A stretch of DNA of 64,000 bases, from sequence record PQ471516.1; one strand, written 5' to 3'. The first letter of the stretch is position 1. Each line of letters opens with the position of its first letter. The DNA is from Escherichia phage Turkey5. Below the pieces are notes generated by a model, which worked only from the letters and a program-made list of their open reading frames with translations, did not search any database and was not told the DNA's origin. Made by a program: the position numbers and the translations under genes. This document shows, piece by piece, positions 36,493 through 38,063 of the stretch.

Positions 36493-37446
36493 ATGACTAC
36501 ATTATGGACTGAAAAATACCGCCCAGCTACAATGGAAGATTACGTATCCAAGAATGATGCTCTACGTCAAAAACTAGAAGAGTGGATTCGCACTGGTGAT
36601 ATTCCACACATTGGGTTCTTTGGTCCCGCTGGTACTGGTAAAACCTCTGCTATTAAGGTTCTACTAAATGGTCTAGAAGCAAATGGTCATCTTGATCCAA
36701 GTGACGTTACTATCCTGAACATGTCCGATGAAGGTATCGATGCAGTTCGTGATAAAATCGATGCAGCAGCAAAACTGTCATGTTTCGGTCGTTACCGTAT
36801 CTTCGTACTAGAAGAAATGGAGCAGATGAACCACAAAGCACAAGGTAGCTTGAAACGTGTAATGGAAGATTATCATGAGAATGCTCGCTTTATTCTTACT
36901 TCCAATGAACCACATAAAATCCAAAAACCTATCATTTCTCGTGTACAGGTAATTACCATTGAGAAACATGATATGGAACAGTTCATGACTCGTATCATCA
37001 ATATTTTGCTTGCTGAAGGTGTTGACCTGAGTTCCGAAGAAAGTATTGACCAAGTTCAACAGTACATCAACGCTTCATATCCAGACTTCCGTAAAACACT
37101 AAACGTATTGCAGAGTTCGGTAGTTGATGGTAAACTTGTAAAACTTGAAGACAGTATTGAAAACTCTGCTGGTTATCGTACTGCAATTGTAGATGCACTA
37201 AAAGCTGGTAACATTCGTCAGATGCGTGAACAAATCGTTCAGAACATCCCTGATGATGATATGGATGCGTTTTTCTCTTATCTATATCGTAATGCAGAAA
37301 TGTTCAGTACTGATGAAATTACCCTGATGAAAATCAAGGTTAAGATTCGTGATGCAGTAGTTAAGCAAGCAACAGTATCTGACCGTGAGATGAACCTTAG
37401 TGCATTGCTGTGTGAAATTGACCTAATCTGTTCAGGGAACATGTAA
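36493..37446 (+). CDS. Clamp loader large subunit (AAA+ ATPase, RFC/T4 gp44-like)
   Basis: WTEKYRP N-terminal box, Walker A GPAGTGKTS, Walker B FVLEEMEQM, sensor TSNEP; ATG 36493 with AAAAGGAAAAA upstream. Confidence 0.85.
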   Translation: MTTLWTEKYRPATMEDYVSKNDALRQKLEEWIRTGDIPHIGFFGPAGTGKTSAIKVLLNGLEANGHLDPSDVTILNMSDEGIDAVRDKIDAAAKLSCFGRYRIFVLEEMEQMNHKAQGSLKRVMEDYHENARFILTSNEPHKIQKPIISRVQVITIEKHDMEQFMTRIINILLAEGVDLSSEESIDQVQQYINASYPDFRKTLNVLQSSVVDGKLVKLEDSIENSAGYRTAIVDALKAGNIRQMREQIVQNIPDDDMDAFFSYLYRNAEMFSTDEITLMKIKVKIRDAVVKQATVSDREMNLSALLCEIDLICSGNM

Positions 37447-38063
37447 TGAAAAAGAAATGTGCCGTTTGGGATTGTGACGAAGTATTACTTGACCATATCG
37501 GTGGGTTGTATTGGTTTGTTAAAGACCATTATGATATTCACCCAACTTCACAATATCCCGTTAGTTACGATTTGCGAGCGTGGTTAGGTGGTATTACATC
37601 TGCTGAAGTGCAAGAGATTATCAAGCACTTCAATCAAAACTCATATGAGTTTGGACTGCTTGAACCGTTAGAGCACAATACGGTTCAAATTATGCAAGAA
37701 TTACGTGATAAGTTTCCTGATGTTCATTTTGTAGTACTGACTAAATCGGGAACACGTGGTCATGGTGAGGTTCTTCGCAAAGTAAACCTAATGAATACCT
37801 TTGGTAGTTTGTTTGATGATATTATCATCGTTGAAATGCAAGAATCCAAGAAAGCTGCTTTACAGAAACTACAGAACCAGTACGATGTAAAATTCCTTGT
37901 GGATGATTACATTAAGAATATTGAAACTGCGATGGATTTGGATATTCCTGCCGTTATGATGCGTTCAAGTCATAACTTGGATTATAAAAACAATCACGAA
38001 GGCTTCAAATATTGCAATAACTGGGCTGACTTACGTCTAGAAATTTATTCAATGATGAAGTAA
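37446..38063 (+). CDS. Putative HAD-superfamily 5'(3')-deoxyribonucleotidase-like protein
   Basis: N-terminal AVWDCDEVLLD matches the HAD DxDxV catalytic motif; TAATG overlap with clamp-loader gene. Confidence 0.45.
   Translation: MKKKCAVWDCDEVLLDHIGGLYWFVKDHYDIHPTSQYPVSYDLRAWLGGITSAEVQEIIKHFNQNSYEFGLLEPLEHNTVQIMQELRDKFPDVHFVVLTKSGTRGHGEVLRKVNLMNTFGSLFDDIIIVEMQESKKAALQKLQNQYDVKFLVDDYIKNIETAMDLDIPAVMMRSSHNLDYKNNHEGFKYCNNWADLRLEIYSMMK

Follow-up and report, generated by a model that had tools for sequence, protein, structure and literature searches.

The large-subunit gene and the genes that follow it

The window analysed in this study, 64,000 nucleotides of Escherichia phage Turkey5 (PQ471516.1), comes from a Rak2-like jumbo phage (Asteriusvirus), and this source phage is 98.6% identical to vB_EcoM_JNE01. 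The gene at 36493-37446 (all features located in the window lie on the + strand) encodes the clamp-loader large subunit, a 317-aa AAA+ ATPase of the T4 gp44/RFC-small type. The protein matched phrog_168, "clamp loader of DNA polymerase", over residues 3-314 (E 5.6e-79), and the Pfam families DNA_pol3_delta2 (1.2e-12, above the cut-off) and AAA (6.6e-11), while the match to Gp44_lid, at 22 bits, fell under the cut-off of 27. The gene starts with ATG, as in the homologues, and a TTG at 36451 is a possible alternative. Its upstream neighbour at 35811-36137 encodes a GroES/Cpn10-like protein (Pfam Cpn10 8.7e-5; phrog_931), and the phages RsoM2USA, Xoo-sp13 and RAS14 likewise have an orthologue ahead of their clamp-loader gene.

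The motifs of the large subunit were read from an alignment with T4 gp44 and distant orthologues, in which all ATPase motifs proved to be intact. The YRP box is kept, the Walker A motif GPAGTGKTS has invariant G47, G49, K50 and T51, and the Walker B motif FVLEEME contains the invariant catalytic E108. Sensor-1 (T136-x-N138), the SRC-type arginine finger (S149-R150) and sensor-2 (P197-D198-x-R200-K201) are likewise invariant. The acidic pair of Walker B is EE, not DE, in the Rak2 clade and in RsoM2USA, which is one of the differences from T4.

The next gene, at 37446-38063, overlaps the large-subunit gene by 1 nt, its first base being the last base of the loader stop codon. Its product of 205 aa is a HAD-superfamily phosphatase resembling NT5C, the 5'(3')-deoxyribonucleotidases, and is not a clamp-loader small subunit; against gp62 profiles, its hhalign probability was 0.8% at most. 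The catalytic motifs D9-x-D11, T99, K135 and D153-D154 are invariant in 27 homologues. The AF2 model (pLDDT 91.3) gave 101 PDB matches in Foldseek at E<=1e-3, of which all of the best 50 were HAD-fold proteins, and the best TM-scores (0.70-0.75) were obtained with the human mitochondrial and cytosolic 5'(3')-deoxyribonucleotidases (mdN and cdN). The profile search against PDB placed 3bwv, a putative 5'(3')-deoxyribonucleotidase, at the top (E 5e-4). Although seven of the 27 family members matched Pfam NT5C (PF06941) at E<=0.01 (best 1.1e-6), the Turkey5 protein itself had no NT5C match at E<=0.1; therefore, it is called NT5C-like and not a demonstrated member of NT5C. It shares with mdN/cdN and 3bwv the HAD core, the helical cap and the DxDxV motif I, at only about 15% identity. 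Unlike mdN/cdN, this HAD family is coupled to a replication gene and is confined to Rak2-like jumbo phages. The substrates are most likely nucleoside monophosphates of the nucleotide pool.

Past the HAD gene, the ORFs at 38151-38726 and 38726-39406 matched phrog_12928 (E 2.3e-82) and phrog_13138 (E 1.6e-114), respectively, and both are virion structural proteins, annotated as "structural protein" in the records of phages A4 and 121Q; a Pfam search gave no match for either. The idea that one of them hides a clamp or small subunit could draw on the second, which resembles gp45 in its length (226 aa) and acidity (pI 4.6). However, the hhalign probability did not exceed 0.6% for the first ORF against clamp and gp62 profiles or 2.9% for the second against clamp profiles, and 2.9% was also the maximum for the two ORFs against both clamp and both small-subunit families (shallow profiles). 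With both ORFs assigned to the virion in PHROG and GenBank, and with the clamp and small subunit accounted for elsewhere, as described below, the probability of this idea is close to negligible.

An earlier note, made from the sequence of the window, had read the AAA+ gene as gp44/RFC-like and the coupled gene as a HAD nucleotidase without similarity to the T4 small subunit, and had seen no clamp in the two ORFs that follow. The present data bear out these readings; the profile comparison of the downstream ORFs, which could have overturned them, matched none to a small subunit or clamp.

A candidate small subunit 33.6 kb upstream

The probable clamp-loader small subunit, a divergent homologue of T4 gp62 with 281 aa, is encoded from a GTG start at 2033-2878, in the same window and 33.6 kb upstream of the large-subunit gene. 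It is composed of a gp62-sized core, with an MFDF peptide at the N terminus, and an insertion of about 90 aa specific to the Rak2 clade (residues about 66-155; 2228-2497). The small-subunit HMM (A4) skips this insertion, matching distant orthologues in two segments at positions 10-64 and 160-277, and the corresponding gap is visible in alignment A7. By HMM and synteny, orthologues of 150-210 aa were located in seven distant jumbo phages (A4 HMM E 1e-14 to 1e-25); a related-locus search with A4 returned the same clade only. In three of these phages, RsoM2USA, Xoo-sp13 and RAS14, the orthologous gene lies just downstream of the gp44-like gene, either directly or past one small ORF, with an overlap between its start and the loader stop codon in RsoM2USA. 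The Rak2, PA5oct, Phosso, Atu_ph07 and Vibrio 2.275.O lineages show no such linkage of the large- and small-subunit genes.

The link to gp62 is transitive and was drawn via purpose-built, broadened profiles, which reproduced an alignment of the Turkey5 protein to gp62 made by eye. A broad gp62 HMM matched the orthologues of those three phages with E-values of 3e-7 to 4e-6 (21.6-25.2 bits), whereas the unrelated ORFs in a set of 976 decoys stayed at or below 7.8 bits and 900 shuffles at or below 9.0 bits; applied directly to the Turkey5 protein, it scored at noise level. The comparison of the core family with gp62 by hhalign gave a probability of 85.4%, which is good but short of conclusive (P 5.8e-6; 145 columns, nearly the whole core), against negative cross-controls of 1.6% or less. 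Deep, diverse alignments on both sides were needed for the hhalign matches of both the small subunit and the clamp: the first core profile reached only 4.1% against gp62, and A4, whether whole, N-terminal, C-terminal, middle or spliced, at most 2.4% against a Tevenvirinae-only gp62 profile.

By other means, the Turkey5 small subunit had no match to Pfam PF16790 (Phage_clamp_A), which weakly matched one orthologue (Xoo-sp13, E 0.022). Pairwise BLASTP against gp62 gave E 0.6, neither the A4 profile against PDB sequences nor phmmer found gp62, and a narrow gp62 HMM matched none of the window ORFs. As an independent annotation, the orthologue carries the label "sliding-clamp-loader small subunit" in the GenBank record of phage Turkey3 (PQ471515.1), where the clamp is labelled too; our literature search found no paper on this annotation.

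The small-subunit gene is followed at 2859-3569 by the gene of a C2H2 zinc-finger protein (weak Pfam zf-C2H2 match), and in each of the seven distant phages an orthologue (E 5.6e-12 to 6.8e-54) is encoded immediately after the small subunit. Further downstream, 3873-4511 encodes the second fragment of a split minimal DNA polymerase III alpha (phrog_11778, "DNA polymerase", E 2.1e-102), and its counterparts are annotated as PolIII alpha or DnaE-like in Turkey3, PAC2 and Phosso. The other fragment, so annotated in A4, Sharanji and Turkey3, lies at 34863-35402, with 1.1 kb between it and the clamp-loader gene downstream. A split minimal PolIII-alpha of this kind has been described (PMC7824862).

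The genes of the small subunit, the C2H2 protein and the PolIII-alpha fragment form a cluster in no fewer than six lineages, that of the Turkey5 window being one. This clustering, together with the separation of the two subunit genes in the five lineages named above and the clade-specific insertion, might suggest that the protein at 2033-2878 is related to gp62 yet partners the split PolIII-alpha and the C2H2 protein, leaving the loader as a homo-oligomer of the large subunit. We regard this as unlikely, as three lineages have the orthologue right behind the large-subunit gene, with the overlap in RsoM2USA reproducing the T4 44-62 pattern, and the homology to gp62 spans nearly the whole core. 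Moreover, T4-type loaders, as in the T4 gp44/62 complex, require a fifth subunit.

The same data bear on whether the HAD-fold protein has taken over from gp62 as the fifth, non-ATPase loader subunit or as an obligatory accessory. Such a role would account for the conserved translational coupling, since the 1-nt overlap joins it to the large-subunit gene and the gene pair is kept in every Rak2-like relative examined (A4, Sharanji, Turkey3), and its 205 aa come near the size of gp62 (187 aa). The role is nevertheless very unlikely: all four catalytic motifs are invariant, as in an enzyme, the fold matches HAD phosphatases only, with next to no gp62 signal in hhalign, a gp62 homologue is present elsewhere in the window, and it is the small subunit, not a HAD gene, that comes after the loader gene in the three distant phages. 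Our preferred reading is that the small subunit is the protein encoded at 2033-2878.

A predicted sliding clamp beside the polymerase gene

The predicted sliding clamp is a "hypothetical protein" of 243 aa, whose gene would lie outside the window, closely following the DNA polymerase gene, about 14 kb ahead of the window start and about 50 kb from the large-subunit gene. Its presence in Turkey5 is inferred from the 98.6%-identical JNE01 (protein WOL22798.1). The AF2 model, for which P0047 (85% identity with the JNE01 protein) supplied the sequence, has a pLDDT of 92.5 and matches sliding clamps only. In this model, the protomer consists of two topologically identical domains (beta-alpha-beta-beta-beta x2) with the PCNA/gp45 fold, which suggests a trimeric ring.

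A deep clamp profile matched T4 gp45 with an hhalign probability of 95.2%, compared with 2.8% for the shallow profile A2. When the deep profile A3 was searched against PDB sequences, RB69 gp45 came top, yet only at E 0.17; the clade-level profile A2 against PDB sequences and phmmer gave no clamp match. Pairwise BLASTP against T4 gp45 gave E-values of 14-49. Identity with PCNA is 10-12%; at the profile level, it is the phage gp45 family to which the sequence connects, here in a phage context with a gp44/62-type loader. The clamp is 72% identical between genera, indicating strong constraint. It is carried by 74 phage records; among the matches listed, 38 of 40 were "hypothetical" or unannotated. 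The clamp family as a whole comprises 459 clusters at 50% identity.

The papers on RaK2 (2013) and CBB (2017) reported gp45 and gp62 to be absent (PMC3622015, PMC5259590), and the Pfam clamp models (DNA_PPF and gp45-slide_C) matched none of 137 family members. Both observations would fit a phage that has no clamp of its own, whose loader would use the beta clamp of the host or whose polymerase would do without one. Against this stands a conserved 243-aa protein beside the polymerase gene, with a high-confidence PCNA/gp45 fold, a significant gp45 profile match and the identity between genera noted above, so that we consider the lack of a phage clamp extremely improbable.

Proposed arrangement of the T4-type processivity system

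Based on this evidence, this Rak2-like phage very probably possesses a complete T4-type processivity system, the genes of which are dispersed and highly diverged. The small subunit and sliding clamp that seemed to be missing both appear to be present, so that replication would rely on a conventional T4-type system whose genes lie scattered. The earlier note had supposed that the loader partners are either elsewhere in the genome or too divergent for motif reading; both apply, with one gene far upstream in the window and the other before its start. Small subunit and clamp alike were invisible to BLAST, Pfam and HMM searches against PDB sequences, and their recognition took structure prediction or deep profile-profile comparison.

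Most likely, the gp44-like ATPase and the gp62-like small subunit would form a pentameric loader, probably in a 4:1 ratio as in T4, which would open the trimeric ring of the 243-aa clamp and set it on primed DNA. An aromatic tail at the C terminus of the family-B polymerase (...NNGFF[S/T]W) may then attach the enzyme to the clamp. The HAD phosphatase, with its catalytic motifs intact, would be co-expressed with the loader, its gene filling the slot after the large-subunit gene in the Rak2 clade, where the loader genes are 33.6 kb apart.

In T4, genes 45, 44 and 62 stand together and adjoin the polymerase gene 43. In the Rak2-like phage, by contrast, the clamp gene is by the polymerase gene, the small-subunit gene is by uvsW, and the large-subunit gene is 33.6 kb further. 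Further differences are the low resemblance of clamp and small subunit to their T4 counterparts, which BLAST and Pfam do not pick up, the insertion in the small subunit, and the HAD phosphatase gene coupled to that of the large subunit. In the group 2.2 jumbo phages RsoM2USA, Xoo-sp13 and RAS14, both the large subunit (E 3e-37 to 4e-55) and the small subunit have orthologues, and the GroES-like and C2H2 flanking genes are shared with Turkey5. Unlike in Turkey5, the two subunit genes stand next to each other or almost so, in the order 44 then 62 as in T4, without a HAD gene behind that of the large subunit, and the small subunit has 150-157 aa and lacks the insertion.

In the descriptions of RaK2 (2013), CBB (2017), phAPEC6 (2020), UE-S1 (2025) and fEgEco12 (2026), gp45 and gp62 are given as lacking, or only "a clamp loader" is named. 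This view would make the T4-like replisome of Rak2-like phages look incomplete. The evidence for both proteins is a correction to the literature and not a new mechanism. The coordinates can serve to annotate the clamp in the 74 phage records, and a large clamp family outside all Pfam models is now defined, as is a variant of the gp62 family with an insertion.

The position of the HAD gene would likewise be explained, as an ordinary nucleotide-metabolism gene in the slot after the large subunit once the loader genes had separated. A further and rather doubtful idea starts from the conservation, across very distant jumbo phages, of the cluster of small subunit, C2H2 protein and PolIII-alpha fragment, with the other PolIII-alpha half beside the large-subunit gene: the C2H2 protein, or else the insertion of the small subunit, could tether the split minimal PolIII-alpha to the clamp loader or the clamp; if so, one loader would serve two polymerases, the family-B enzyme and the minimal PolIII-alpha. 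In a weaker form of this idea, the HAD nucleotidase might be recruited physically to the replisome, policing the local dNMP/dNTP pool.

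The loader gene and its neighbours

The window phage has an ordinary T4-type clamp and clamp loader, whose partner genes are scattered and have diverged beyond the reach of routine annotation. Its region at 36000-40300 shares 98.6% identity with Escherichia phage vB_EcoM_JNE01 and about 78% with 121Q, PBECO4, phAPEC6 and other Asteriusvirus phages, a group of Rak2-like jumbo phages with genomes of about 350 kb; nearly all genes in the window lie on the + strand. The later Asteriusvirus papers up to 2026 give 'a clamp loader' as the sole loader or clamp entry, so the apparent lack of a clamp and small subunit is a gap already documented, and finding both corrects literature statements on Rak2-like phages. 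Both findings agree with the labels that one GenBank record, that of phage Turkey3, already bears, and their novelty is modest.

The large-subunit gene (36493-37446, + strand) matched phrog_168 ('clamp loader of DNA polymerase', E 5.6e-79) and the Pfam families DNA_pol3_delta2, AAA and Gp44_lid. Alignment with T4 gp44 and distant orthologues showed that all active clamp-loader ATPase motifs are kept, namely the YRP box, GxGKT, the catalytic Walker B Glu, sensor-1 TxN, the S-R arginine finger and sensor-2 PDxRK. These motifs show an intact gp44-type ATPase; the earlier note had called the gene gp44/RFC-like AAA+. In both RsoM2USA and the Rak2 clade, Walker B reads L-E-E-M, with EE where Xoo-sp13, RAS14 and T4 have the usual DE.

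The next gene (37446-38063, + strand), which has one base in common with the loader stop codon, had been taken for a HAD-like nucleotidase, and this reading was sustained as 'NT5C-like'. The four HAD motifs (D9-x-D11, T99, K135 and D153-D154) are invariant in the family, and the best match of its profile among solved structures was 3bwv, a putative 5'(3')-deoxyribonucleotidase. The listed structural matches of the AF2 model (pLDDT 91.3) were all HAD enzymes, with top TM-scores of 0.70-0.75 to the human mitochondrial and cytosolic deoxyribonucleotidases. Pfam NT5C was matched directly by 7 of 27 family members; the Pfam search gave no NT5C match for the window protein itself. Motifs and model together show an intact HAD phosphatase. 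The family appears to be confined to Rak2-like phages, which account for all named sequences among its 46 database homologues, the remainder being unnamed metagenomic sequences. The enzyme would most likely dephosphorylate (deoxy)nucleoside monophosphates as part of an extensive phage nucleotide metabolism, for which the window also carries ribonucleotide reductase, DHFR and NTP pyrophosphohydrolase genes, and its coupling to the loader gene is best read as co-expression with early replication genes.

The two following ORFs (38151-38726 and 38726-39406, both + strand) encode virion structural proteins according to PHROGs ('virion structural protein') and the records of phages A4 and 121Q ('structural'). 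Family alignments of the HAD gene, these two ORFs, the ORF at 39403-40221 and two small upstream ORFs were each set against the two clamp families and the two small-subunit families by hhalign. No comparison exceeded a probability of 2.9%, from query profiles so shallow that this negative is weak alone; the true partners, now accounted for elsewhere, reached 95% (clamp) and 85% (small subunit). The earlier note was right in what it observed and in how it read it, and both of its explanations held: the clamp gene is outside the window, the small-subunit gene is at 2033-2878, and direct sequence searches with either were blank. Just 3' of the structural-protein genes lie a TelA-like gene (41523-42656; Pfam TelA, E 4.4e-39) and one for an Rv2179c-like 3'-5' exoribonuclease (42739-43425; E 2.9e-10).

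The sliding clamp

The family-B polymerase gene of phage A4 is followed, 564 nt on, by the start of A4_21, which encodes a 243-aa 'hypothetical protein'. Its JNE01 orthologue is WOL22798.1 (OR670491.1 167882-168613), which in JNE01 coordinates places the clamp gene about 14 kb ahead of the window start and about 50 kb ahead of the loader gene. BLASTP against gp45, Pfam, and phmmer and hmmsearch against PDB sequences found nothing, and its PHROG class is phrog_12062, 'unknown function'. When 1.84 billion representative proteins were searched with its profile, the family came to 459 clusters, with a length of about 245 aa in nearly all of the 150 listed; none of 137 sampled members matched the Pfam clamp models. 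Over 175 collinear columns, the deep alignment of this family matched the 90-sequence gp45 family with an hhalign probability of 95.2% (P 2.8e-8), against 2.8% for the clade-only alignment, which would explain why annotators overlooked the clamp. These data show a predicted PCNA/gp45-fold clamp encoded beside the polymerase gene.

Between E. coli and Yersinia phages, the clamp (72% identity) has kept far more of its sequence than the HAD protein (46%). The clamp gene occurs in 74 phage records; among the 40 listed, 38 leave it hypothetical or unannotated, and the two others are Turkey3 ('protein sliding clamp') and Phosso ('DNA polymerase III sliding clamp beta'). The phage polymerase C-terminus, ...NNGFF(S/T)W, is reminiscent of the clamp-binding tail of T4 gp43, ...SLDFLFG. 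By analogy with the T4 system, large and small subunits at 4:1 would form a loader that opens the trimeric clamp and sets it on primer-template junctions, where the family-B polymerase would bind the clamp via the polymerase C-terminal tail.

Just downstream of the A4 clamp gene is a second GroES/Cpn10-like gene, A4_23 (A4 locus L003:4163-4462). Annotations of the large terminase gene, also outside the window, differ: A4 (L003:8274-10585) and Turkey3 have it in two pieces, and JNE01 (locus L010:10019-13331) has a single ORF of 886 aa with another ORF upstream. This difference suggests an interrupted or mobile-element-containing gene.

The small subunit

In the Turkey3 record, the product of a gene downstream of uvsW, 281 aa long, bears the label 'sliding-clamp-loader small subunit', which was used as a lead to the window counterpart (2033-2878, + strand, GTG start). 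Direct comparison with gp62 by BLASTP, Pfam PF16790, PDB searches and hhalign with clade-level profiles was blank, and a Tevenvirinae gp62 HMM found no small subunit among all ORFs. By way of marginal tblastn matches, positional orthologues were located in jumbo phages that are very distantly related (PA5oct/PAC2, Phosso, Atu_ph07, Vibrio 2.275.O, RsoM2USA, Xoo-sp13 and RAS14); at 150-210 aa, these orthologues are near gp62 in size. The window-family HMM matched them in two segments (E 1e-14 to 1e-25) that leave out positions ~65-160, and the Rak2 clade thus carries a ~90-aa insertion.

After 31 small subunits from marine T4-like contigs were added to the gp62 family, the broad HMM directly matched Xoo-sp13 (E 2.9e-7), RAS14 (E 5.6e-7) and RsoM2USA (E 3.7e-6), whose proteins ranked top among 976 jumbo-phage ORFs (21.6-25.2 bits). 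Ranks 4-5 (10.2 bits) were Rak2-clade members of the family; unrelated ORFs scored at most 7.8 bits and 900 shuffles at most 9.0. The insertion-free core family matched the broad gp62 family at 85.4% (hhalign, P 5.8e-6, 145 columns), with cross-controls at or below 1.6%. These profile data strongly support 2033-2878 as a predicted gp62-related small subunit, an assignment less decisive than that of the clamp.

Within the insertion (2228-2497, residues ~66-155), the YDWRIKF and GKW..GGKEAL motifs are invariant, and the sole matches of the domain were weak ones to designed PPR repeats. A 559-aa ORF of an IMG/VR contig, UViG_3300028833_001804 (L094:774-2453), is small-subunit-like in its C-terminal part (E 3.5e-6) and is possibly a fusion protein.

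Gene order across jumbo phages

In RsoM2USA, the stop codon of a gp44-like gene ends on the base at which the small-subunit gene starts; Xoo-sp13 and RAS14 have one ORF of about 104 aa between the two genes. These gp44-like genes are full-length orthologues of the window loader (E 8e-52, 4e-55 and 3e-37), and the large-then-small order is the T4 44-then-62 arrangement. The intervening ORF (L196:2181-2495 in Xoo-sp13, L197:2199-2516 in RAS14), absent from RsoM2USA and without a family match, could be an extra loader-associated protein.

In these three phages (type B), the order is GroES-like, x, large subunit, (small ORF), small subunit and C2H2 protein, with an additional PolIII-alpha fragment at the end in RsoM2USA. 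Type A (the window, Phosso, PA5oct, Atu_ph07 and Vibrio 2.275.O) has uvsW, orf165, small subunit, C2H2 protein and PolIII-alpha fragment, with the large-subunit gene elsewhere. As the window holds both the type A block (0.07-4.5 kb) and a segment with GroES-like, orf89, large-subunit and HAD genes (35.8-38.1 kb), type B amounts to these two segments brought together. The Rak2 clade has 33.6 kb between its loader subunit genes, with the HAD gene in the slot after the large subunit.

The GroES/Cpn10-like gene upstream of the large subunit (35811-36137) is a neighbour kept in RsoM2USA, Xoo-sp13 and RAS14. The small-subunit gene also has a conserved neighbour directly upstream in every type A phage (E 1e-28 to 1e-62), which in the window lies at 1533-2030 and encodes a 165-aa protein with no Pfam match. 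A split 'minimal' DNA polymerase III alpha has been described (PMC7824862); its halves in the window (3873-4511 and 34863-35402) each lie about 1 kb from one loader subunit gene. Phosso, PA5oct, Atu_ph07, Vibrio 2.275.O and RsoM2USA have the 3873-4511 half in a cluster with the genes for the small subunit and a C2H2 protein.
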